Source: Candidatus Omnitrophota bacterium
Lineage (GTDB): Bacteria; Omnitrophota; Gorgyraeia; Velamenicoccales; Velamenicoccaceae
Direction: 5' to 3'
DNA: 24,000 bases
NCBI GenBank assembly: GCA_016235185.1
Contig: JACRLT010000042.1
Span: 37,917 to 61,916, forward strand
Shown piece by piece: positions 2,602 through 20,527 of the stretch; position 1 is the first letter of the stretch, and every line of letters starts with the position of its first letter. Below the pieces are notes generated by a model. The model was given only the letters and a program-made list of their open reading frames with translations, searched no databases and was not told where the DNA came from. The position numbers and the translations under genes are program-made.

Positions 2602-3120
2602 TTAGAGCGCCAGTTTTGATTTGATCCCACCGCTGGAGCTGATCTCCACGATCTCAATGACCTTGACCTTTAAAATTGCGAACTTTTCCGGCAAAGAGAA
2701 CTCCAAAGGCGAAGCCTTCTCTCCTGTGCGCAGGTTAAAAAGGATGCGCTCCACCGTGAATTTTGTCTTTATATCCTGGAACTCATCGGAAAGTTTTTTA
2801 AACTCCTCGCCCTTCTCTAGAATATCTACGGTGCCGTTAAGCTGGTAACCGGTCAAAGTGCGGTCATCGATAAAAGAAACAGAAATGCGAGGATTCTCCG
2901 ATAAGTTGGAAAACGTCTTGCCCATGACATAATCAACGAGATAAATAATATTGCTGTGCACCTTGGCGATAAGCTTGGGCGCGACATTCGGCATGCGCTC
3001 GCAACTGCATGTCGCAACATTCACGAATTTTCCCGTAGACAGGTACGGCAATAGGCCGTGGAGAAAATTCTCCTTTTCGGCAGGCGTTACTTTTTCAACA
3101 ACTCTTTTTCTCTTTTCCAT
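2602..3120 (-). CDS. Pyridoxamine 5'-phosphate oxidase-like (FMN-binding split-barrel) family protein
   Basis: 172-aa ORF. Its size and pattern (NVATCS..MPNVAPK..IYLVDYVMGKTFSNLSENPRISVSFID..TGYQLNGTVDIL) resemble PNPOx-class proteins. Called by eye only. Confidence 0.6.
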   Translation of the reverse strand: MEKRKRVVEKVTPAEKENFLHGLLPYLSTGKFVNVATCSCERMPNVAPKLIAKVHSNIIYLVDYVMGKTFSNLSENPRISVSFIDDRTLTGYQLNGTVDILEKGEEFKKLSDEFQDIKTKFTVERILFNLRTGEKASPLEFSLPEKFAILKVKVIEIVEISSSGGIKSKLAL

Positions 3121-3129
3121 GTCAAGCCG

Positions 3130-3813
3130 TCATTGGTGATAAAATCTTTTCTTGGACCCTTCCCTTACAAGGAATTGGGTAAGGTCCACCCTTTCTGGGT
3201 TGGATGGGCAAATGCCTTGCAAAATACACTCAAGACACTTAGGTTTTTTGGCAACGCAGGTTTGGCGGCCGTGCCAGATAAGCCTCAAAGTAAAATCCCC
3301 CCATTCTTTTCTATCCAACTGCTTGGCGAGGTCCTGCTCTATTTTTACCGGATCGCTGTTCTTCGTCAGGCCCAGCCGTTGGCTTACACGGTTGACATGC
3401 GTATCTACCGCTATGCCCTCATTCTTACCAAAGGCGTTATATAAGACTACGTTTGCTGTCTTTCTGGCCACGCCAGGTAATGTCAACAGGCCATCCATGT
3501 TATCCGGCACTTTTCCGTTAAAATCTTTTAAGATCATATTGGCGCAGGCAATAATATTTTTTGCCTTGTTGCGGTAAAATCCGGTGGATCGGATCTCCTG
3601 CTCGAATGCACTTAGGTCAGCCTTGGCATAATCCCTTATATCCTTGTATTTCTTAAAAAGGCCTCCTGTCACGATATTGACCCGGGCATCTGTGCACTGG
3701 GCCGAAAGGATAGTCGATACAAGCAACTGCCACGGATTTGCGGATTTTAAAGCTATCCTCGGCCTGGGATACTTTTTTTTAAGAAGCGCAACAACTTCCT
3801 TTATGCCTGTCAT
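3130..3813 (-). CDS. nth: Endonuclease III (HhH-GPD DNA glycosylase/AP lyase with a 4Fe-4S loop)
   Basis: WQLLVSTILSAQCTDARVN, LPGVARKTANVVL and HVNRVSQRLGL, plus the C-terminal Cys cluster CVAKKPKCLECILQGIC. ATGA overlap with the upstream ogg stop. Confidence 0.92.
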   Translation of the reverse strand: MTGIKEVVALLKKKYPRPRIALKSANPWQLLVSTILSAQCTDARVNIVTGGLFKKYKDIRDYAKADLSAFEQEIRSTGFYRNKAKNIIACANMILKDFNGKVPDNMDGLLTLPGVARKTANVVLYNAFGKNEGIAVDTHVNRVSQRLGLTKNSDPVKIEQDLAKQLDRKEWGDFTLRLIWHGRQTCVAKKPKCLECILQGICPSNPERVDLTQFLVREGSKKRFYHQ

Positions 3814-11418: not shown

Positions 11419-11540
11419 TTAATTAAAATGTAACACATCAAATATAATTTTCAAGGGGGATAAAAAAATTATTTTCCCCGCGTTTTGAGATACTTTCGCG
11501 CCCTGCTCGGCTTACCGCCTCGCTACGGTCGCTCAAGTAT

Positions 11541-11576
11541 CCACCATCTTTTTCCGATACAGGAAAAAGATGGTGG
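11541..11576 (-). terminator. 15-bp perfect hairpin that includes the tmRNA 3' CCACCA (processing or termination hairpin)
   Basis: CCACCATCTTTTTCC (11541-11555), a 6-nt loop, then GGAAAAAGATGGTGG (11562-11576). No U-tract follows on the minus strand. Confidence 0.45.
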
Positions 11577-12043
11577 AGGTGGGCGGAATCGAACCGCCGT
11601 CCTTAAATTATCCGATAGAAAGCACTACATGTTTAGCCTATTTATTAATTTAACCTGTTTTACTCCAGTAGGCAGGATTAAAACAGGCTGTCCTTTTTTA
11701 GATTTAATCCCGACAACTAAAGGAATGTTGTTGGAACGAGCCTGTTTCCGGCACCTATACGCTTCCAGGCAAAACGCATAAGTGGTCCCGCTTAATGAGC
11801 GAGAGCTAACGCTGGAGTTGCAGGAGCAGCTGTCAATCCAGGATTGGTAGCCTCAGTGGAGAACAAACTTACTGTTTCCTCTGATGTAGCCGCCATACTT
11901 GGACCATTGGCAATTGCTTCAGCTTCTCTGATCAGACTTTCGTCTTTTGCGTTTATATTGTGCAAGGTGTTTAAAGAGGCCTCCTCGCAACCTCTACATG
12001 CTCCATCTACCAGTAAAACCTAAGTCGAGCCCTTTTCACCCCC
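11571..12043 (-). ncRNA. ssrA: tmRNA (SsrA), 473 nt
   Basis: The 5' end GGGGGTGAAAAGGGCTCGACTTAGG pairs with the 3' end ...GGCGGTTCGATTCCGCCCACCTCCACCA. The acceptor stem has a G3:U pair and a T-arm GGTTCGATTCC. PK1: AGAGG/CCTCT plus TGCGAGG/CCTTGCA. The resume region AAAC-GCA AAA GAC GAA parallels E. coli GCA AAC GAC GAA. Confidence 0.93.
11792..11950 (-). other. tmRNA tag-encoding reading frame (52 codons plus TAA)
   Basis: From GCA at 11950: AKDESLIREAEAIANGPSMAATSEETVSLFSTEATNPGLTAAPATPALALAH*. Translated by hand; no in-frame stop before 11794-11792. Confidence 0.55.
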
Positions 12044-12081
12044 AGGCATACCTCAAAGAACAATGGATCAACTGCCATCAT

Positions 12082-13002
12082 TTAAAACGCTGGCCTTCTT
12101 CTAACCCCTTTTCCTGTAAAGTGTTTTATCGCTTCAGGAGGATATTCCAGGAAATATTTATCTTCTCCCAGGAATGAAGAATCCTTGAAGAAGAACTTCT
12201 CAAACTCATTAAAATTATAAGCCATAATGACTGTTTTTACAATGCTAATTATCGCATCTTTTTTCTCATCAGCCGTTAAGTCAAAGGGCGTTGTATTATA
12301 CTCAAGAGCGAAACGTTTGTAAATACGCCACTTAATCTGCTTTTCAACAAACTCCTGCATAGTCACGTCATGGTAATTGACATGTGTTCCTTCTATATCC
12401 CGATAAGATGAGGATGTTTTATTGCCATCAAGGTCAACTTGTTCTTCTATCTTCTCCAGGTCCCAAGACAGCCGGCTAAAGCCCTCACCCGAAAAATCAA
12501 CGCCAACATTATAATTCTTTAAATCGTCAATAAAACCCATATAATATTCATCAACAGTATTATTTGGATCTTCAATATTCGTAACAACAAGCACAAAAAA
12601 CGTATAGGGCTGCGTACATCTAAGTTCGAGATCGCGCATCAGTCTCACTACTTTCTGCGAGATGTATCTTAATTCAGGAGGGTCCTGCTTTCTGAACGGG
12701 TTGAAAGAGGCAATGTTATATTCAAGATTAAAAGCATTATCATTTTTTATCTTAGTCCCTGCAAGCCCTTTCCTTCCTGACGAATAAGGCATATATACCC
12801 ATAGGGTGTCATTGGCAGCCCTGCAGGTGACGCGCGCCTGGTAGCGGTTCTTGCAAATCACGGGAAGAACTCCCAGGAGCTCTTCCCGTGACATCTTAAA
12901 AGAATTCTCACACGACGTCAGAAGAACCATCAATGAACATAATAAAAAAAATCTCACAGATACCCGCGCCGGCAACATTATCTTATTTGTATTATTTTCC
13001 AT
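12082..13002 (-). CDS. Hypothetical lipoprotein encoded between the tandem FtsH gene and ssrA
   Basis: Start at ATG 13002 with GGGAG 9 nt upstream, 4 nt after the FtsH stop. MENNTNKIMLPARVSVRFFLLCSLMVLLTSCEN carries a lipobox (LTSC). The tracked longer ORF (to 13185) overlaps the ftsH-like gene. Confidence 0.65.
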   Translation of the reverse strand: MENNTNKIMLPARVSVRFFLLCSLMVLLTSCENSFKMSREELLGVLPVICKNRYQARVTCRAANDTLWVYMPYSSGRKGLAGTKIKNDNAFNLEYNIASFNPFRKQDPPELRYISQKVVRLMRDLELRCTQPYTFFVLVVTNIEDPNNTVDEYYMGFIDDLKNYNVGVDFSGEGFSRLSWDLEKIEEQVDLDGNKTSSSYRDIEGTHVNYHDVTMQEFVEKQIKWRIYKRFALEYNTTPFDLTADEKKDAIISIVKTVIMAYNFNEFEKFFFKDSSFLGEDKYFLEYPPEAIKHFTGKGVRRRPAF

Positions 13003-13006
13003 AAGC

Positions 13007-16000
13007 CTAAACTCCCGGCCTTGCTTTACCGAAAGATTTAAAAATCTCTTCCATCTGGTCATAATCCAATTCTTCTTTTTCAAGAAGTGACTGCGCGAAT
13101 TTATCAAGCAGCGCTCTTTCCTGCGAAAGTATCTTTTCAACGTCGCTGCGGCATTCGCCGATGATCTTTTGCACGTCGCTATCAAGTTTTGCCTTCATCT
13201 CTTCAGACATCCTAGATTCAGCCGGTTGGTTGCCGAAAGCAAGGGCTGAAAAGTTTCCGCTCATCCCGCTTTCACCCATGCCCCACTCATAAACCATGCT
13301 ATAGGCGACCCGCATGACATTTTTTAGATCTGCGGATACGCCTGCGGTTGTATAGCCATATTTTGTTTTTTCTGCCACATACCCTCCGAGAGATGTCTTG
13401 ATATTTGCCAGCGCCTGTTTTTGGTCAAATGCCAGGGTCTCCTCTGTGGCATGAGACCAGCTTACCCCTGCTGAGCTCTTGCGCGGAATAATACTCACCT
13501 TGAAAACATCTCTTTTGGGCTGAAGCAAATAAGTCATAATAGCGTGCCCTGCCTCATGATACGCCGTGGCTTCTTTTTCCTGACGCGACAACTGGACACG
13601 CTGCCGTAATCCCAGCTCAATACGCTCCATTGCCTCGCTTATTTCATCCATTGTAATAAAGTCTTTTTTATTCCTCACCACAAGTATGGCTGCCTCGTGG
13701 ACCATATTGGCTATATCCGCCGGAGAATAACCAACACTGATACGCGCAAGTTTATCTGTACGCACTGAATTTTTATCATAGCTGACATTGGAAAGGTAAT
13801 ATTCAAAAAGCTTTTGCCTATCTTCCAGATTGGGAAGATAGATATATAATTTACGGTCAAAACGGCCCGGGCGCAAAAGAGCCGGGTCAAAATGATCTTC
13901 GGGCATATTAGTCGCGCCAACCACCACAATATTAAACTCCGCATCTTTTTCCTTAAGGCCGTCCATCTCTACTAGAAATTGATTGAGGGTCTGATTATGC
14001 TCTCTCTGCCCTCCGAGACCCATATCAACGGCGCGCCTGGCTCCAAGTGCGTCAATTTCATCAATAAATAAAATACATCCGCCGTGAATCTGGGCCAATT
14101 CTTTAGCTTCTATGAACATACGCCGTATGCGCATAGCGCCCACTCCAACAAACATCTCAACAAATTCTGAGCCGGATTTATACAAAAACGGCAGATTAAA
14201 CTCTGTGGCCATAGCGCTGCCCAGATATGTCTTGCCGCAGCCAGGAGGCCCGAACATGAGAAGTCCCTTGATAATTTTTCCTCCGACTCTCTGCAAGCGA
14301 GCCCTGTCCTTTATCAATTCCACTACCTCACGCGCTTCCTGCTTTGTTTCATCCATGCCTATAACATCATCCCAAGTAACGCCTGTTTTTATGATGCGGG
14401 CTTCCTGGACCATTACAGCTTCTCTTGCAGGCCGCTCTTTATCGGATTCCTTAAAAATCTGCTCAATCTCATCATAATTAAGCTCTTCTTTTTCCTCTAA
14501 TTCCTTCGCCAGCTTTTCAACTATTTTCCACTCCTGTCTTAAAAGAGTATTGATCTGCCGATAACAGTGCTCGATCATCTCCTGGGCATCTTTGTCCAAA
14601 TCCTCCTGAATTAGATTAGACACGCCTGCACCTTCAAAATTGCCTATGTGTCCTGACTTACCCATCCCCCAGCGCCATACCATATTATGAGCAAGCTCCG
14701 TCGCTTTACGCAAGTCGCTTTCAGCCACATTTGAGGTCACGCCGAATTTTATCTTTTCAGAGACAAAACCTGCCAGTGATATTTTTATATCCGCCTGGAC
14801 CAGGTTTTTATCGCGGCTTAAAACCTCCTCTTTTTCAGTCAAAAGAGAAGATACAATATCTTTACCCCTGGGAATGATAGTTGCTTTAAAAACATCTTTG
14901 GTCGGAACCAACAGATATGTAACCAGGATATGGCCTGCCTCATAAAAAGAAAGCCGCGCCTTCTCTTCCTGCGTCATTCTAAAATGGCGCTTTATACCTA
15001 GCGATATCCTTTCGCGGGCCTCTTTCATTTCTTTCATAGTAATAGCAGGTTTTTTATTGCGCTGCGTTATAACCAGTGCCTCCTGAACCATATTCGCTAT
15101 TTCCGCAGGAGAAGCGCCTACGGTAATACGCGCCAAGCTCTCAATATCTGCTGAGTTTTTATCATAAGAAGTCTTTCCCAAATAATACTCAAAAAGTTTT
15201 TTGCGGTCATACGCATCAGGCAAGTCTACCACTATCTTGCGGTCAAACCTACCGGGGCGAAGAAAGGCCGGATCGAGAAATTTTTCTGACATGTTGGTAG
15301 CGCCAAATACTACTATATTATCGGCCTTACTTCTTAAGCCGTCCATTTCAACAAGCAATTGGTTTAAGGTGGTGTTGTGTTCTGTCGTGCCGCCAAAACC
15401 TTCAAACGTTCCCCTTGACATACCCATCGCATCAATCTCATCGATAAAGATAACGCACCCGCCTTCCAGGGCAGCTAATTCTCTGGCTTGCTTAAACAAC
15501 TTGCGTACCCGGCTGGCGCCGACTCCGACGAACACCTCTACAAATTCAGAACCCGACAACGATAAAAACGGAAGCTTGGTCTCGGTGGCTATAGCTTTGA
15601 CGAGATAAGTCTTACCGCAACCCGGAGGGCCCAATAATAATACTCCTTTTAATATTTTTGAGCCGCTTTTTTCAAGCTCTACCCTGTCTGTTATAAGCTG
15701 CACAACCTCTCTTGCCTCTTTCTTCGACTCCTCCATCCCGATGACATCTTCCCAGCGCACACCGATATCTGCGCCTCTGATATAAGACTTGCCTATTCGA
15801 GTAAAAGCCCTGGCTGCATCGCCGCGCATAATAAACACCCACATCAATCCAAAAATTACCGATTGAATAACCGCAAAATAAAGCTGGAACGGAAACCCCC
15901 CTATCGTACGCTGCTTAGTCACAAAATCTACACTGGACCACTCCGAAATTCCACGATAAAGAAGGATACCCACCGAGATAACCATAACTAAAGACACAAC

Positions 16001-16060
16001 AACCATAATTATTTTGATCCAGTGCAATTTGAAAAATATTTTCATTCTTTTGTTATCCAT
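13007..16060 (-). CDS. Tandem-duplicated FtsH-like AAA+ metalloprotease: 2 TM helices, then [AAA+ and M41-like] twice
   Basis: Walker A GPPGCGKT is at aa 144-151 and 604-611. Walker B IFIDEID is at aa 204-210 and 664-670. Pore loops are FVEVFVGVGA and FVEMFVGVGA. The SRH LRPGRFDRK occurs twice. The protease motif is YEAGH at aa 373-377 (nt 14930-14944) and HEAGH at aa 835-839 (nt 13544-13558). AAGGAG RBS. Confidence 0.9.
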   Translation of the reverse strand: MDNKRMKIFFKLHWIKIIMVVVSLVMVISVGILLYRGISEWSSVDFVTKQRTIGGFPFQLYFAVIQSVIFGLMWVFIMRGDAARAFTRIGKSYIRGADIGVRWEDVIGMEESKKEAREVVQLITDRVELEKSGSKILKGVLLLGPPGCGKTYLVKAIATETKLPFLSLSGSEFVEVFVGVGASRVRKLFKQARELAALEGGCVIFIDEIDAMGMSRGTFEGFGGTTEHNTTLNQLLVEMDGLRSKADNIVVFGATNMSEKFLDPAFLRPGRFDRKIVVDLPDAYDRKKLFEYYLGKTSYDKNSADIESLARITVGASPAEIANMVQEALVITQRNKKPAITMKEMKEARERISLGIKRHFRMTQEEKARLSFYEAGHILVTYLLVPTKDVFKATIIPRGKDIVSSLLTEKEEVLSRDKNLVQADIKISLAGFVSEKIKFGVTSNVAESDLRKATELAHNMVWRWGMGKSGHIGNFEGAGVSNLIQEDLDKDAQEMIEHCYRQINTLLRQEWKIVEKLAKELEEKEELNYDEIEQIFKESDKERPAREAVMVQEARIIKTGVTWDDVIGMDETKQEAREVVELIKDRARLQRVGGKIIKGLLMFGPPGCGKTYLGSAMATEFNLPFLYKSGSEFVEMFVGVGAMRIRRMFIEAKELAQIHGGCILFIDEIDALGARRAVDMGLGGQREHNQTLNQFLVEMDGLKEKDAEFNIVVVGATNMPEDHFDPALLRPGRFDRKLYIYLPNLEDRQKLFEYYLSNVSYDKNSVRTDKLARISVGYSPADIANMVHEAAILVVRNKKDFITMDEISEAMERIELGLRQRVQLSRQEKEATAYHEAGHAIMTYLLQPKRDVFKVSIIPRKSSAGVSWSHATEETLAFDQKQALANIKTSLGGYVAEKTKYGYTTAGVSADLKNVMRVAYSMVYEWGMGESGMSGNFSALAFGNQPAESRMSEEMKAKLDSDVQKIIGECRSDVEKILSQERALLDKFAQSLLEKEELDYDQMEEIFKSFGKARPGV

Positions 16061-16075
16061 ACGTCAAGCTCCTTA

Positions 16076-16528
16076 TCACTTGTTCTTAAGCATTCTCTTC
16101 ATTGCCAAATTCGCTTCTCGGCGTCTTATATCTTGGCGCCTATCATATGTTTTTTTACCCTTGGCTAAAGATAGGGCCACCTTAACAAAACCTCTCGCGT
16201 TAAAATACATCTTCATCGGCACAAGCGTAAAACCACGCTGAGAAACCTTGCCTATTAATTTTTTTATCTGTGCGTGATGCAAGAGAAGACGCCTGGGCCT
16301 TGTGGCCTCTTCCTTAAAATAGCTGGCCTTTTCGTATGGGGTTATATGGCAGTTATGTAGATATATTTCGTTGCCTTCAATGCGGGCAAAGGCATCGTCG
16401 ATATTTGCCTTGTGGTCCCTAAGCGACTTGACTTCACTGCCCTTTAGCTCAAGACCGCACTCCAGGGTCTCTAAAACCTCATAATCCCTGAACAATTTGC
16501 GGTTTGTGGCTATGACCTTTTCGTCCAT
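16076..16528 (-). CDS. smpB: SsrA-binding protein SmpB
   Basis: IATNRKLFRDYEVLETLECGLELKGSEVKSLR...LHNCHITPYE...RPRRLLLH..EI.KL...KGFTLVPMKMYF..G.VKV.L.LAKGKK.YDRR. Confidence 0.95.
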   Translation of the reverse strand: MDEKVIATNRKLFRDYEVLETLECGLELKGSEVKSLRDHKANIDDAFARIEGNEIYLHNCHITPYEKASYFKEEATRPRRLLLHHAQIKKLIGKVSQRGFTLVPMKMYFNARGFVKVALSLAKGKKTYDRRQDIRRREANLAMKRMLKNK

Positions 16529-16542
16529 AAATTATATCATAT

Positions 16543-17511
16543 TTAAAATGATTTTCCAGCCAGCGCCCAGTAAATGGCCAGGAATAACGGGATGGTCAAA
16601 ATGCTCAAAATGTGGCCGTAAAAGACGGCCTGATTTATCAGCCGGCCTGCCTGGTTATGGTTTTTTGTTATCACAGACAAAAGCGCTGCCGGCGGCATGG
16701 CAGCCTGCAGGAGGATCAAAAGCCCTACAAGAGGTTTAGGTTTGGCAAGGATGACAAACCCCAAAAAAAGCAAAGGTATAATAACAAGCTTTATCGAAAG
16801 CGAAAAACTGACAGGTTTTATATCCGTGCCGCCTTGTGTCTTTAACGACGCTAAATTGCCTCCGACAACAAGAATAGACAAAGGAATGGCGCAACGGCCC
16901 AGGATATCAACAGGCCGCGCAACAAACTGCGGCAGGATCGTTTTGATATTAAAAAATACGAATGCCAAAGCCAATAGCGTTGCAATGACCGGCGCGTTGA
17001 ACATGTGCCTGTAATCGAACCTCTGTCCTTTTTTAGGCGCCAATATCATGACGCCGAAAGAAAATATCGTCATGTTAAAACCTATCAAAAATAAGAATAT
17101 TAGAATAAACATCTCTTGCGCTGCCGCGGCAGGCAGCAAAGCCGCAACCAAAGGCAGGGGCAGGTAACCGGAATTCTGGAACGAAGTTATACCCAAAAAC
17201 TCCCCGGCGTTCTTTGCCAGTGTCTTATCAACTGCCAAAACAAGCGCCCCGCATGCATAGCCGACAAGGGTGATGAATATGCTGTAAAGCGGGAATATCC
17301 ACCAATCAGGATAAATGCTGAAACTGAAGCGCTCGACTATCTGGGAAAACATAAAACACGGCAAGAAAAGCCCGATGACAAGATCGCTTAAGACCCTTAC
17401 CCCTTCATCGCGGATGATATTGCGACGGACAATGAAAAATCCTACTGCCCCCAAAAGGACCAGTTCTAAAATAGAACCGAATGTCGTCTTAAACGCATCA
17501 ATAAACATCAT
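16543..17511 (-). CDS. AEC (auxin efflux carrier) family permease
   Basis: 322-aa polytopic membrane protein with an AEC-like pattern at the N-terminus and C-terminal half. ATGA overlap with the thermonuclease stop. Confidence 0.8.
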   Translation of the reverse strand: MMFIDAFKTTFGSILELVLLGAVGFFIVRRNIIRDEGVRVLSDLVIGLFLPCFMFSQIVERFSFSIYPDWWIFPLYSIFITLVGYACGALVLAVDKTLAKNAGEFLGITSFQNSGYLPLPLVAALLPAAAAQEMFILIFLFLIGFNMTIFSFGVMILAPKKGQRFDYRHMFNAPVIATLLALAFVFFNIKTILPQFVARPVDILGRCAIPLSILVVGGNLASLKTQGGTDIKPVSFSLSIKLVIIPLLFLGFVILAKPKPLVGLLILLQAAMPPAALLSVITKNHNQAGRLINQAVFYGHILSILTIPLFLAIYWALAGKSF

Positions 17512-18299
17512 GGAATAACCTCTATCTGCCAGGGGTGTGATACGATGATCTCGGGCTCTCCTTTATACTCTTTGATCAATCCGAATACCTGCGCTTTCTT
17601 GCCTTTATAAAAAGACGCGGGGCTGATGCCTTTGTTTAAAAAAAGCTCGAGGTCGTTTTTAAATATGACCAAGGCCAGGCCATCCATTGACAGGCGCACC
17701 AGCTTCTCCATTGAGCGCGTTTTTTTGATCTCGCCTGTGACGATCTTTCTCTGGCCCACAAAATGCGCGGCATCTTGGGAAGAGATGTCCAGGTCCTGCG
17801 ACCATATGCCACGCCGATTCTCTTTTGCCTCTTTTAAAGCGCTGACAAGCGTATCCACATATTTTACATTCGGCACAAATGTGTAAAGATAAGCCAGGCC
17901 GTTCCTTAATATTTCAGCCTGGGCCAGGACTTCTTTGCCGCCGTCTTTGACGAACAAATAGACTAGCAGCCTTTTGTATTTATCCTGGCGCACGATATCA
18001 AACTCCAGGCGCGCGGCCTTTCCTGATACAAGTTCCTCATTAAAACGCCTTGCCTCCTCTCCAAAAGGTTCAGAGACGTTTTTCCAGCCGCTCGCAGTCT
18101 TTTTGTGCGTCTCGGGAGTATCAATACCTATATAACGCGCCATCTCCCCATTCTTTAACTCAACTGTGTCACCGTCTACAACGGACTTTATCTCAACATT
18201 GCCATAATCAACAGGCGTATTCTTAAAACCGACGGCAAGAACAATGATGAGCGCAGACAGAACTGCAGCAAATATGAATATATACCGGTTTATTTTCAT
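17508..18299 (-). CDS. Secreted thermonuclease (staphylococcal nuclease/SNc homologue) with a C-terminal extension
   Basis: Signal/TM segment, then VVDGDTVEL..GEMARYIGIDTPET...FGEEA..FN...RLEFD...DKY.RLL.Y. Confidence 0.85.
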   Translation of the reverse strand: MKINRYIFIFAAVLSALIIVLAVGFKNTPVDYGNVEIKSVVDGDTVELKNGEMARYIGIDTPETHKKTASGWKNVSEPFGEEARRFNEELVSGKAARLEFDIVRQDKYKRLLVYLFVKDGGKEVLAQAEILRNGLAYLYTFVPNVKYVDTLVSALKEAKENRRGIWSQDLDISSQDAAHFVGQRKIVTGEIKKTRSMEKLVRLSMDGLALVIFKNDLELFLNKGISPASFYKGKKAQVFGLIKEYKGEPEIIVSHPWQIEVIP

Positions 18300-18364
18300 A
18301 GATGATCCGGTGGCGGGGTATCTGGGCTACTTTATCAACTGTTTCCAACAATTGCAGGGAGAGG

Positions 18365-18757
18365 CTATTTTATCAATTGTTGGACTATCTTGACGAAAAC
18401 TTTTTCAGCAGTTGCCACGCGTGGAAAAAGGCCTTTTCTGGCCTTGACCTTTACGCGTATGGCTTCCGGCGTAAGCTGGGTTATCTCAACTTTGACTTTT
18501 GCCTTATCTATAAGGGCTTCCATAGTGCCTTTTGTCGAATCACGATTTGAAATAGCTCCGAGCATATTGCAGGTATCCAGCGCTGCCTTCCAGGCAGCCG
18601 CATATTTGGCATCATATTCGCCCTGGATAGTATCGCGAGTGATCGCATATCCGCCTAAAGCGCCTACGCTGCTGGCTATCAGAAAGAAACAACCGCTCAA
18701 AGATATAAGACAGATAAAAATTACCGCGAACAAACTTATCTTTTTTAAATTCATCAT
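18365..18757 (-). CDS. Hypothetical lipoprotein
   Basis: MMNLKKISLFAVIFICLISLSGC carries a lipobox. AAGAGG precedes ATG 18757/18754. The tracked ORF start at 18793 is less likely. Confidence 0.6.
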   Translation of the reverse strand: MMNLKKISLFAVIFICLISLSGCFFLIASSVGALGGYAITRDTIQGEYDAKYAAAWKAALDTCNMLGAISNRDSTKGTMEALIDKAKVKVEITQLTPEAIRVKVKARKGLFPRVATAEKVFVKIVQQLIK

Positions 18758-18851
18758 TTGACCTCTTAAATGACGGCATACTTTACGGAACAAAGTAAAC
18801 GTAAAGTATACGCCGGAATTTATCCCGCACCCAAAGGGTGTCGGGATCTAT

Positions 18852-18959
18852 TTAGGTAATTGTCCCCTTTTTAGAGAATATCTTATAAAAACAAAAGACG
18901 GCAAGGCCTATAATACCGAGCCATGATATACCTAAAAAAAACCAGCCAAAAAAATTCAT
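18852..18959 (-). CDS. 35-aa single-TM small protein, translationally coupled to the NSS transporter (possible MetS-like small subunit)
   Basis: ATGA overlap with the transporter stop (18956-18959). MNFFGWFFLGISWLGIIGLAVFCFYKIFSKKGTIT*. Below the ORF-track size cutoff; found by hand. Confidence 0.5.
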   Translation of the reverse strand: MNFFGWFFLGISWLGIIGLAVFCFYKIFSKKGTIT

Positions 18960-20527
18960 AGCAGTTTTTTCTCCTCTTCTCTGGCGCGCCTGCGCCAGGC
19001 GATCTTTACCAATACAGCAAGCGCAGTAAATAGCCCAATGAGGCCTATCCTCGTCCAGAAAATATATGGTTTATCCGCATCGGATGCCCCCTTCAAAAAC
19101 AGCACAGGCAAACCCTCCTGGTATATCCAGAAACCCAGGATGGTCAATAAGAAAAGCGGCGTAATGAACTTAATGATAAACTTATATATTTTAGGAACGC
19201 GCATATCAGCGCCGTGATGTATCTCCTCCCACGCGCGATCCATGCCAAATACCCAGGCAAAAAGAATGGTTTCGATCGTCGCAAAAAGCACAAGGCAAAA
19301 CGTGCCTCCCCAAAAATCAAGCTCGTTAACAACGCCCCTGCCCAAAAAGAAAATAGCAGGCTGGCACAAGAAAAAGCTTACCACGCCAAATATCTTGACC
19401 GATCTCTGGCGCGTAATGTCAAACTCATCCTCCAGGAAGGCTATGGCAGGCTGGGCCAACGAAACGCTTGAAGTAATGCCTGCCAAAAACAAAAGCCCAA
19501 ACCATAAAAAACCGAATACAGGGGCCAAGGGAAACTTACCCAAAACAAGAGGCATTGTCACGAACCCTAGGTCAAATGCGCCTTGCTTGGCTATTGCCTG
19601 GATCTCGCCGGGCCCAAAAAAAACAAATGCCGCAGGGATAATAATACAGCCGCCTAATATTACTTCAGCCGCCTCATTGACGCTTGCGGCTGTGAGGCCT
19701 GAAAGCACCACATCATCCCCTTTTTTCAAATAGCTGGCATACGTCAGAATAACGCCGATCCCTACGGAAAGAGTAAAAAGTATCTGACCCGAAGCAGCCA
19801 ACCATACCTTGGCGGACTTAAGCGCGCTAAAATCGGGATTCCATAAAAAACCTAAACCGTTATTTAAGTTCCAATCCGGCCTCGCAGGATCAGGCGTACC
19901 CAATGACAAAACCCTGATAGCCAAGATAATACCGAAGAAGAACAGAACAGGCATCGTAATATTGCAGAGTATCTCAATGCCGCCTTTGATGCCGTGGCGC
20001 AGGACTATCATATTCAAAACAAAAGTTATAAAAAAAAATATATAGGCAGGCCAAAGATCATGGAAAAAAGCATTGCTCTCTAAACCCTGATACCCCTTAA
20101 GGAATGCCTGCATGGAAGGCTGATCCACAACCGCAAACAGGCCTTTAACACTATAGAAACTATATCCTAAAGTCCACGATTCTATAAAAAGATAATATAT
20201 GAATATTACAAGAGGGCCAAAGATACCGATAACGCCGAAGTATTTTATAAAGCGGTTCTTTTTCCATATGCTGTGGAAGATGCCCGGGGCTGTGCCATGC
20301 TCAAAACCTCCGCCAAAACGGCCCAGGGTCCATTCTATCCACATAAGCGGTATCCCCAATAACAACAAGGAGATAAAATAAGGTATCATGAACGCGCCGC
20401 CGCCATTGCCTGCTGCCTGGACAGGAAACCTTAAAAAATTACCGAGCCCTACGGCAGAGCCTGCGACAGCAAGGATGATGCCGAGCCTGGAACCCCACGT
20501 ATCACGCTTATGTTTTAGCTGTCTCAT
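18956..20527 (-). CDS. Sodium-dependent transporter, NSS/SNF family
   Basis: WGSRLGIILAVAGSAVGLGNFLRFPVQAAGNGGGAFMIPYFISLLLLGIPLMWIEWTLGR is the hallmark NSS TM1 region. 523 aa. Confidence 0.93.
   Translation of the reverse strand: MRQLKHKRDTWGSRLGIILAVAGSAVGLGNFLRFPVQAAGNGGGAFMIPYFISLLLLGIPLMWIEWTLGRFGGGFEHGTAPGIFHSIWKKNRFIKYFGVIGIFGPLVIFIYYLFIESWTLGYSFYSVKGLFAVVDQPSMQAFLKGYQGLESNAFFHDLWPAYIFFFITFVLNMIVLRHGIKGGIEILCNITMPVLFFFGIILAIRVLSLGTPDPARPDWNLNNGLGFLWNPDFSALKSAKVWLAASGQILFTLSVGIGVILTYASYLKKGDDVVLSGLTAASVNEAAEVILGGCIIIPAAFVFFGPGEIQAIAKQGAFDLGFVTMPLVLGKFPLAPVFGFLWFGLLFLAGITSSVSLAQPAIAFLEDEFDITRQRSVKIFGVVSFFLCQPAIFFLGRGVVNELDFWGGTFCLVLFATIETILFAWVFGMDRAWEEIHHGADMRVPKIYKFIIKFITPLFLLTILGFWIYQEGLPVLFLKGASDADKPYIFWTRIGLIGLFTALAVLVKIAWRRRAREEEKKLL

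Follow-up and report, generated by a model that had tools for sequence, protein, structure and literature searches.

Trans-translation is universal in bacteria, but only for a few model organisms is it established which protease reads the resulting tag. Here, we analyze a stretch of 24,000 nucleotides (nt), referred to below as the window, from contig JACRLT010000042.1 of a Candidatus Omnitrophota metagenome-assembled genome (MAG). In the window, genes for a tandem FtsH protease and a lipoprotein are located between smpB, the gene for the tmRNA-binding protein, and ssrA, the gene for the transfer-messenger RNA (tmRNA). Across the metagenome assemblies with which the window was compared, the block consisting of tandem FtsH, lipoprotein, and ssrA (below, the cassette) appears to be an alternative to a plain ssrA allele at the same site and is consistently associated with an exceptionally long predicted tag.

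In Escherichia coli, ssrA-tagged proteins are degraded by ClpXP (plus SspB), ClpAP, Lon, and FtsH (PMC3985003, citing Herman et al. 1998), and the C-terminal ALAA of the tag is the determinant for ClpX and ClpA (PMC3985003). The Omnitrophota locus resembles trans-translation of the E. coli type in that smpB and ssrA are neighbors, the tRNA-like domain is canonical, the resume codon GCA follows an A-rich stretch, and the tag end is hydrophobic. It differs in that the tag in the window consists of 52 amino acids (aa) rather than 11 and ends in LALAH (with H, P, Q, R, or I as the last residue in relatives) rather than ALAA, in that the genes for a protease and its partner are embedded in the smpB-ssrA unit, and in that many relatives leave no room for a separate ssrA promoter. 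In Mycoplasma, tags without the C-terminal ALAA go together with the absence of ClpXP (PMC3985003), and the long tag, which ends in AFA, is read mainly by Lon (PMC8403727; PMC3985003). Mycoplasma provides a precedent both for co-variation of the tag with the available protease and for unusually long tags, but there the protease is the cytosolic Lon and shows no genetic linkage with ssrA. With its 27 aa, the Mycoplasma tag reaches about half the length of the cassette tag.

Lateral movement of an FtsH paralog within a quality control block is known from Pseudomonas aeruginosa clone C, where the horizontally acquired accessory PaFtsH2 resides on the PACGI-1/tLST protein quality control island (PMC6629908; PMC10850787; PMC8290217). 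PaFtsH2 has a narrower substrate range than the core FtsH and cannot replace it. Unlike the cassette, that island encodes chaperones and proteases without a tmRNA, PaFtsH2 is a single-module protein, and transfer involves an island rather than replacement of an allele at a fixed site. FtsH hetero-hexamers are represented by the mitochondrial m-AAA protease Yta10/Yta12 and by the type A and type B FtsH of cyanobacteria and chloroplasts, along with the protease-dead FtsHi. As in these assemblies, two diverged modules, one of which lacks the zinc site as FtsHi does, presumably alternate in one ring; in the cassette protein, however, the modules are fused in a single polypeptide, with one membrane anchor per pair. 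Finally, the HflK/HflC modulators (PMC12048511) exemplify an extracytoplasmic or membrane partner encoded beside, or acting with, FtsH. The partner here is instead a lipoprotein of about 300 aa without a Band_7 domain. The literature searched contained no description of a fused two-module FtsH, of its lipoprotein partner, of a tag of 51 to 55 residues, or of a genetic union between tagger and protease, and nothing relevant on Omnitrophota together with either tmRNA or FtsH.

Gene order and separate history of the cassette

Relatives of the locus were found through the contigs of 34 lipoprotein homologs (45 to 60% identity) and through an FtsH scan of the GTDB genomes, which, with its very specific peptide patterns, yielded only 7 tandem loci. 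In addition, a scan of metagenome contigs based on an SmpB alignment produced 80 loci in which SmpB is 57 to 79% identical to that of the window. ARAGORN recovered the tmRNA in one of five relatives; an Rfam search and an nhmmer profile were used instead.

In the window, smpB, tandem FtsH, lipoprotein, and ssrA are collinear on the minus strand, separated by spacers of 15, 4, and 38 nt (the last measured to the tmRNA 5' end), and the positions and gaps given in the initial annotation, which was made from the sequence alone, are confirmed. That annotation described a compact cluster of four genes; the four genes stand, but the gene for an auxin efflux carrier (AEC)-type transporter (MemT) upstream of smpB was left out, although the conserved unit, MemT-smpB-(FtsH-lipoprotein)-ssrA, begins with it. 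The order transporter-smpB-tandem FtsH-lipoprotein is present in every sufficiently long locus (L001 to L004, L006, L008, and L011 to L016), and FtsH is found between smpB and ssrA in five further loci from the SmpB scan (L026, L027, L089, L096, and L097). With the tmRNA included, the full order recurs in 13 or more independent loci, L027 and L096 among them, so that conservation of the four-gene order, which the initial annotation had proposed to survey, is confirmed. Such recurrence in independent assemblies is not due to chance. In all FtsH-bearing loci that reach far enough, the tmRNA detected by Rfam begins 16 to 215 nt past the lipoprotein stop codon, and the FtsH and lipoprotein genes of the relatives overlap or are at most 72 nt apart, as is typical of operon partners. 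In the great majority of the 80 loci from the SmpB scan, ssrA directly follows smpB, and nearly every related locus has the transporter gene immediately upstream of smpB, with a 4-nt overlap in most. The arrangement transporter-smpB-ssrA is the ancestral and far more common one.

The two arrangements differ in the tag. Read from the canonical resume codon by the resume motif rule, the tag consists of 51 to 55 aa in all 13 loci that carry the FtsH-lipoprotein pair, compared to 24 to 38 aa in all 62 FtsH-less loci. The locus is, in effect, a natural experiment in which plain ssrA and FtsH-lipoprotein-ssrA alleles differ in tag length.

Neighbor-joining trees with 100 bootstrap replicates were constructed for MemT, SmpB, MemT and SmpB combined, and the downstream Amidase_3 protein, as well as for the tmRNA with the tag removed. 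The FtsH-bearing loci were monophyletic in 0 of 100 replicates on each of the four protein trees. For example, the FtsH-bearing L004 joins its FtsH-less sister L102 with 98 to 99% bootstrap on MemT and MemT+SmpB (52% on SmpB alone); L003, L097, and L083 group with 100% (91% on SmpB alone), and L003 and L083 with 100% on the amidase; the window, L028, and L038 group with 100% on MemT and MemT+SmpB (0% on SmpB alone); and L011 and L100 with 98 to 100%. To either side of the locus, L003 and L083 align collinearly at 73 to 77% nucleotide identity, and they differ only in the 4-kb insert and the tag region. Conversely, the tmRNA body unites all FtsH-bearing loci with 88% bootstrap, a signal located in the 130 nt 3' of the stop codon (82%). 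Distance matrices give the same picture: those of MemT and SmpB are strongly correlated (Spearman coefficient of 0.90), whereas those of FtsH, lipoprotein, and tmRNA correlate with the flanks at 0.16 to 0.40.

Because the flank trees scatter the FtsH-bearing loci while the tmRNA body unites them, FtsH-lipoprotein-ssrA is very probably a cassette subject to lateral exchange. The simplest reading of the trees is that plain ssrA and FtsH-lipoprotein-ssrA are alternative alleles that were swapped several times, in one direction or the other, by homologous replacement. The distance matrix of SmpB follows that of MemT and correlates with those of the cassette genes at only 0.16 to 0.38, so that smpB behaves as a resident flank rather than as part of the cassette. 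Consequently, of the co-evolved set proposed in the initial annotation, ssrA, tandem FtsH, and lipoprotein do share a history distinct from that of the flanks, but smpB does not belong to it.

Upstream of the transporter and smpB (window positions 17508 to 20527, minus strand) are genes for an SNF family transporter, a DUF3568 lipoprotein-like protein, and a staphylococcal nuclease homolog. This synteny is found in one subclade, both with FtsH (L001, L002, L016, and L027) and without it (L029, L032, L034, L035, and L038); being common to FtsH-bearing and FtsH-less loci, it helped to show that the cassette is not bound to a clade.

The tag, the tandem FtsH, and the lipoprotein

The window tmRNA matches the Rfam model RF00023 over its full length (positions 1 to 374 of 374) with 170.3 bits against a gathering score of 47 (E value of 5e-68), in agreement with ARAGORN. 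The resume codon GCA is located at tmRNA position 94 and is followed by an open frame of 52 codons that ends in TAA, for a predicted tag AKDESLIREAEAIANGPSMAATSEETVSLFSTEATNPGLTAAPATPALALAH. The tag frame is open in 13 of 13 cassette tmRNAs, whereas both other frames contain stops in 12 of these (in L016, frame +2 has none). Differences within the tag frame are concentrated at third codon positions (0.48, compared to 0.34 and 0.29 at the other two), and the length of the tag varies among cassette tmRNAs in multiples of three. By these measures of sequence comparison, the long tag frame behaves as a coding sequence.

About five times as long as the E. coli tag, the cassette tag has a clear three-part design. 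An N-terminal segment, ANENTRLLAAANAIV or AKDESLIREAEAIANG, is present also in some FtsH-less relatives; an acidic spacer of about 20 residues, rich in Ser, Gly, Glu, and Ala, is found in cassette tmRNAs only; and the hydrophobic C terminus, GLAVAPxTPALALA, is followed by one variable residue. None of the cassette tags ends in ALAA. The initial annotation had called the tag atypical, and the comparison gives this substance: whenever FtsH-lipoprotein adjoins ssrA, the tmRNA belongs to a distinct lineage and the tag is about 20 residues longer. The tags of FtsH-less Omnitrophota end in N, H, P, R, Q, and similar residues, likewise not in ALAA; given these tag ends in both kinds of loci, the phylum as a whole probably does without the canonical ClpX degron. 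In most cassette tmRNAs, nhmmer also reported reverse-strand self-matches at profile positions 117 to 234 (about 11810 to 11930 in the window), which indicates that part of the extended tag frame is imperfectly palindromic; the tag insert may fold as a long hairpin and be both coding and structural.

The tandem FtsH matches TIGR01241 in two stretches with 880.7 bits, against a cutoff of 600, and its domains are arranged in the order AAA-lid-M41-linker-AAA-lid-M41, with a disordered linker of about 13 to 20 residues. Alignment with solved FtsH structures covers residues 57 to 293 and 560 to 1008 (best structure, 7tdo; E value of 7e-151), and the two modules share about 52% identity. A type II, double-ring AAA+ architecture such as that of ClpA, ClpB, or p97 was considered and rejected, because the two ATPase modules, with a complete protease domain between them, do not form an adjacent D1-D2 pair.

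The motifs GPPGCGKT, FIDEID, FVGVG, and RPGRFD, which represent Walker A and B, the pore loop, and the second region of homology (SRH), are present in both modules and invariant across 52 tandem FtsH, as are H835, E836, G838, and H839 of module 2. In contrast, the first His of the zinc motif in module 1 is replaced by Tyr in all 36 cassette-type FtsH (YEAGH in 26, YEAGR in 7, and others, such as YEAGQ, in 3). The tandem FtsH is accordingly predicted to combine one live and one dead protease module. Protein engineers dissecting AAA+ rings build this kind of construct, which occurs here naturally: an FtsH "dimer" in a single chain, with one of its protease sites dead.

The search for FtsH in Omnitrophota revealed a close tandem group (65 to 82% identical, about 1015 to 1027 aa) and a second group of 47 to 52% identity. 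In the latter, module 1 retains HEAGH in 18 of 20 proteins, and both members for which the genomic context was checked are encoded away from ssrA; from these sequences, the cassette FtsH is recognized as a diverged subfamily. Other forms have 1100 to 1110 aa, about 1366 aa with extra AAA modules, or 560 aa with a single module. For example, P0079 (1366 aa; L024:6001-10101) consists of four AAA modules followed by a single M41, and the tandem FtsH of L096 (551 to 4198, about 1216 aa; compare P0038) contains an extra M41-like segment; in both cases, a lipoprotein homolog follows. In a check for a second FtsH, the accession ranges of 20 proteins, mostly Omnitrophota FtsH-like, were compared with MBI5873975/6, and none of these 20 comes from the MAG of the window.

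A typical FtsH has two N-terminal transmembrane helices around a periplasmic domain of about 70 residues. In the AlphaFold2 (AF2) model of the tandem FtsH, the N-terminal hydrophobic helices span residues 3 to 43 and 56 to 79, the intervening loop has only about 20 residues, and no periplasmic domain is seen. The individual domains are modeled confidently, whereas the linker (residues 546 to 558) has a predicted local distance difference test score (pLDDT) below 50; with a predicted template modeling score (pTM) of 0.48 for the monomer, the model is uninformative on the packing of the two modules. Given how short the loop is, the lipoprotein may replace the missing periplasmic domain.

The lipoprotein has a signal peptide, MENNTNKIMLPARVSVRFFLLCSLMVLLTSC (MENN...LLTSC), whose terminal lipobox LTSC fits the pattern [LVI][ASTVI][GAS]C. 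At least 90% of the family conserve Cys31 of the lipobox. The protein matches no Pfam or NCBIfam model, and the AF2 model, although confident (pLDDT of 83.7), has no fold match in the PDB, in keeping with the earlier description of the family as unassigned. In addition to the 34 close homologs, an exhaustive profile search retrieved 316 representative clusters at an E value of 1e-3 or below, only 10 of which are close, cassette-type lipoproteins. At the distant FtsH loci L022, L023, L024 (four AAA modules and one M41), and L025 (a single module), none of which adjoins smpB or ssrA, FtsH is likewise followed by a lipoprotein homolog (family hidden Markov model E values of 1e-15 to 1e-22) with a lipobox-like signal peptide. 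FtsH and the lipoprotein are a phylum-wide pair that is usually located far from ssrA. The lipoprotein is therefore a partner of FtsH and not a component of the trans-translation machinery; it represents a new family tied throughout the phylum to FtsH that lack the usual periplasmic domain. At L022 (3876 to 5829), two Band_7 (HflK/HflC-like) genes are located divergently upstream of a tandem FtsH gene unlinked to ssrA, and Omnitrophota may combine modulators of the HflK/C type with the lipoprotein partner.

A possible matched tag and protease, and its alternatives

The observations can be brought together in a model of nested units. Transporter-smpB-ssrA would be the resident, phylum-wide transcription unit, in which, in one set of Omnitrophota, plain ssrA was replaced by a block of about 4.5 kb, consisting of the tandem FtsH, the lipoprotein, and a variant ssrA, that would be inherited and laterally exchanged in one piece at the same chromosomal site. 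Stalled chains would receive the long, flexible tag from SmpB and tmRNA. Three chains of the tandem FtsH, anchored in the membrane, would assemble into a pseudo-hexamer in which all six ATPase sites but only three protease sites are live; a trimer is the natural expectation for chains in which two modules share a single membrane anchor and are joined by a disordered linker. The lipoprotein would substitute for the missing periplasmic domain or otherwise organize the complex outside the membrane. FtsH would then engage the tag and degrade the product, a tail of about 50 residues being long enough to bridge pore and proteolytic chamber before any unfolding. In partial products of E. coli FtsH, tails of about 28 and 39 residues persist, of which the one of about 28 has been assigned to the channel or protease chamber (PMC9601784); by this measure, a 52-residue tag would span the distance from pore to chamber unaided.

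The case for such a matched tag-and-protease system is that tag and protease each carry cassette-specific changes, that ssrA is co-inherited with the tandem FtsH and the lipoprotein, and that FtsH is a known ssrA tag protease, which partly bears out the co-evolved set envisaged in the initial annotation. Taken as a whole, matched system included, we consider the model about evenly poised between right and wrong; the narrower proposition that the long tag has the tandem FtsH as its cognate protease is put forward tentatively, at or slightly below that level. If the coupling is real, both the co-evolution of tag and protease and the delivery of substrates to a membrane AAA+ protease become testable, and the pair would be an orthogonal degron and protease. 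A bolder version, in which the cassette is a self-contained, horizontally spreading "tag-and-destroy" system, seems unlikely. In this version, an orthogonal degron of about 52 residues would be legible only to the co-transferred covalent FtsH pseudo-hexamer, with its alternating live and dead protease sites, together with a lipoprotein of a new fold, and spread might be driven by homing of the LAGLIDADG group I introns in the T-loop of many Omnitrophota tmRNA genes, with co-conversion of the upstream exon and the genes next to it; were the long degron read only by the co-transferred machine, tagger and protease would have to move together.

Several findings weigh against a matched system and fit as well with linkage devoid of any substrate coupling, that is, with an ordinary membrane quality control FtsH-lipoprotein pair, housekeeping or accessory, that landed once between smpB and ssrA, so that ssrA hitchhikes and the longer tag is unrelated. 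All cassette tmRNAs form a single clade, which implies that the long tag, the dead module 1, and the linkage arose together once; the association of tag and protease is thus a single evolutionary observation and weak statistical evidence of function. The three genes fit within 4.5 kb, with ssrA so close to the lipoprotein gene that recombination would seldom split them, and proximity alone predicts co-transfer. FtsH-less relatives have unusually long tags with no linked protease, and across most of the phylum FtsH and the lipoprotein work elsewhere in the genome. The block boundaries, moreover, are not sharply defined, given that the cassette clade receives 0 to 3% bootstrap from the first 93 nt of the tmRNA and from its final 110 nt, and the trees are neighbor-joining only. 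Nevertheless, linkage alone does not readily account for a cassette that remained intact through several independent replacements, across loci whose transporters are 40 to 44% identical, with not a single decoupled case among about 75 loci. Nor does it account for the specific divergence of the cassette FtsH, including the uniformly dead site in module 1, or for a tag change that takes the form of a discrete spacer confined to cassette tmRNAs. We regard linkage without substrate coupling as possible, but would not call it probable.

It is also conceivable that the coupling is purely regulatory, with FtsH and the lipoprotein co-expressed with ribosome rescue, for example, under translation or membrane stress, and not acting on the tag. 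The operon-like spacing in the window, the overlaps in relatives, the lack of an internal terminator (see below), and the apparent co-transcription of ssrA with upstream genes across the phylum are all compatible with this explanation, which leaves unexplained, however, both the tag difference in every cassette locus and the loss of one FtsH protease site, and which we accordingly consider improbable. The arrangement was also considered as an integrase-type genomic island inserted at ssrA or as an assembly or binning artifact. tmRNA genes are classical integration sites of genomic islands, and all the sequences come from metagenome assemblies, where assembly or binning can go wrong, but the insert is located 5' of ssrA rather than at its 3' end, no integrase is present in any flank examined, nhmmer detected no duplicated tmRNA fragment, and the architecture recurs in more than 13 assemblies (NCBI, ENA, JGI, and Logan) with 41 to 89% protein identity among them. 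An integrase-type island and an assembly artifact are effectively refuted by the position of the insert, the absence of integrases from the flanks, and this recurrence.

Transcription, processing, and other features of the locus

The coordinates of the features in the window are compiled in Table 1.

Table 1. Features of the transporter-smpB-FtsH-lipoprotein-ssrA locus (window coordinates)
Feature	Position	Strand	Evidence or remark
AEC/auxin efflux carrier-type transporter (MemT)	16543-17511	-	Pfam PF03547, E value 2.5e-38
smpB (tmRNA-binding protein)	16076-16528	-	Pfam PF01668, E value 1.8e-54, profile positions 1-143 of 143
Shine-Dalgarno AAGGAG, 8 nt 5' of FtsH ATG, within smpB-FtsH spacer	16069-16074	-	Sequence reading
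Tandem FtsH (FtsH2x), 1017 aa, MBI5873976.1	13007-16060	-	Two AAA and two Peptidase_M41 (Pfam); TIGR01241
Degenerate zinc-binding motif YEAGH, FtsH module 1, aa 373-377	14930-14944	-	Expected HEXXH
Intact zinc-binding motif HEAGH, FtsH module 2, aa 835-839	13544-13558	-	
Lipoprotein, 306 aa, HZB36_07570 (MBI5873975.1)	12082-13002	-	Signal peptide with lipobox LTSC
ssrA (tmRNA), 473 nt, intronless	11571-12043	-	ARAGORN and Rfam RF00023
Tag reading frame	11792-11950	-	Resume codon GCA 11950-11948; 52 codons; stop TAA 11794-11792
16-bp hairpin, 3' trailer with tmRNA 3' end (CCACCA...)	11540-11577	-	Fold energy

In the relatives, the 5' end of ssrA is located between -7 and +20 nt from the smpB stop codon in 18 of 70 listed gaps (one of the 70, of 4544 nt, is that of the FtsH-bearing L096). 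Such proximity leaves no room for a promoter, so that co-transcription followed by release through RNase P is likely to be the norm in the phylum. The proposal in the initial annotation that the tmRNA is matured from a polycistronic transcript by RNase P is plausible in the light of these gaps; most likely, RNase P would release the 5' end of the tmRNA, and processing at a conserved hairpin its 3' end. A convincing internal terminator was looked for within the cluster, and none was found.

Two candidate promoters for ssrA in the window were rejected. TTGATC-15-TATGCC, previously named as the best candidate, is geometrically impossible: it ends 1 nt before the mature 5' G, so that transcripts would begin within the acceptor stem and could not yield a complete tmRNA. 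The best match to the consensus, TTTACA-17-TATAAT (12323 to 12295), lies within the lipoprotein codons IYK...EYN and is not maintained at synonymous sites by the relatives.

The perfect 16-bp hairpin at the 3' end has a fold energy of -36.8 kcal/mol (z score of -5.9). Many relatives, FtsH bearing as well as FtsH-less, maintain it with compensatory trailer changes. It is probably a terminator or a 3'-processing element that closes the transcription unit, and its conservation suggests that the CCA end is masked in the precursor.

At the other end of the unit, positions 16531 to 16558 (minus strand) contain an extended -10-like TGnTATAAT, with TGGAAA 16 nt upstream, that ends 2 nt before the smpB ATG. 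No Shine-Dalgarno sequence is visible at the smpB start in the window; most relatives instead have the 4-nt overlap of MemT and smpB.

Group I introns occur at one fixed T-loop site of the tmRNA genes, GGTTCGAT^...GTG^TCCCGCCACCTCCACCA, and range from 252 to 676 nt in length. They are found in L008, L015, L048, L081, L101, and L105 and probably in L016, L038, L046, and L059, that is, in Omnitrophota tmRNA genes both with and without the cassette. The Rfam match to Intron_gpI, at only 20.9 bits, is below the gathering score. Homing of these introns, in which the upstream exon would be co-converted, may plausibly drive ssrA allele replacement, a suggestion to be taken as a lead only. Several introns contain a LAGLIDADG open reading frame (PF14528, E value of 5e-6), homologs of which, 63 to 74% identical, are present in six other loci. 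In L008, where positions 2727 to 3362 are listed for the intron of the tmRNA gene, the 3' exon TCCCGCCACCTCCACCA is found at 3363 to 3379, after an intron of 639 nt.

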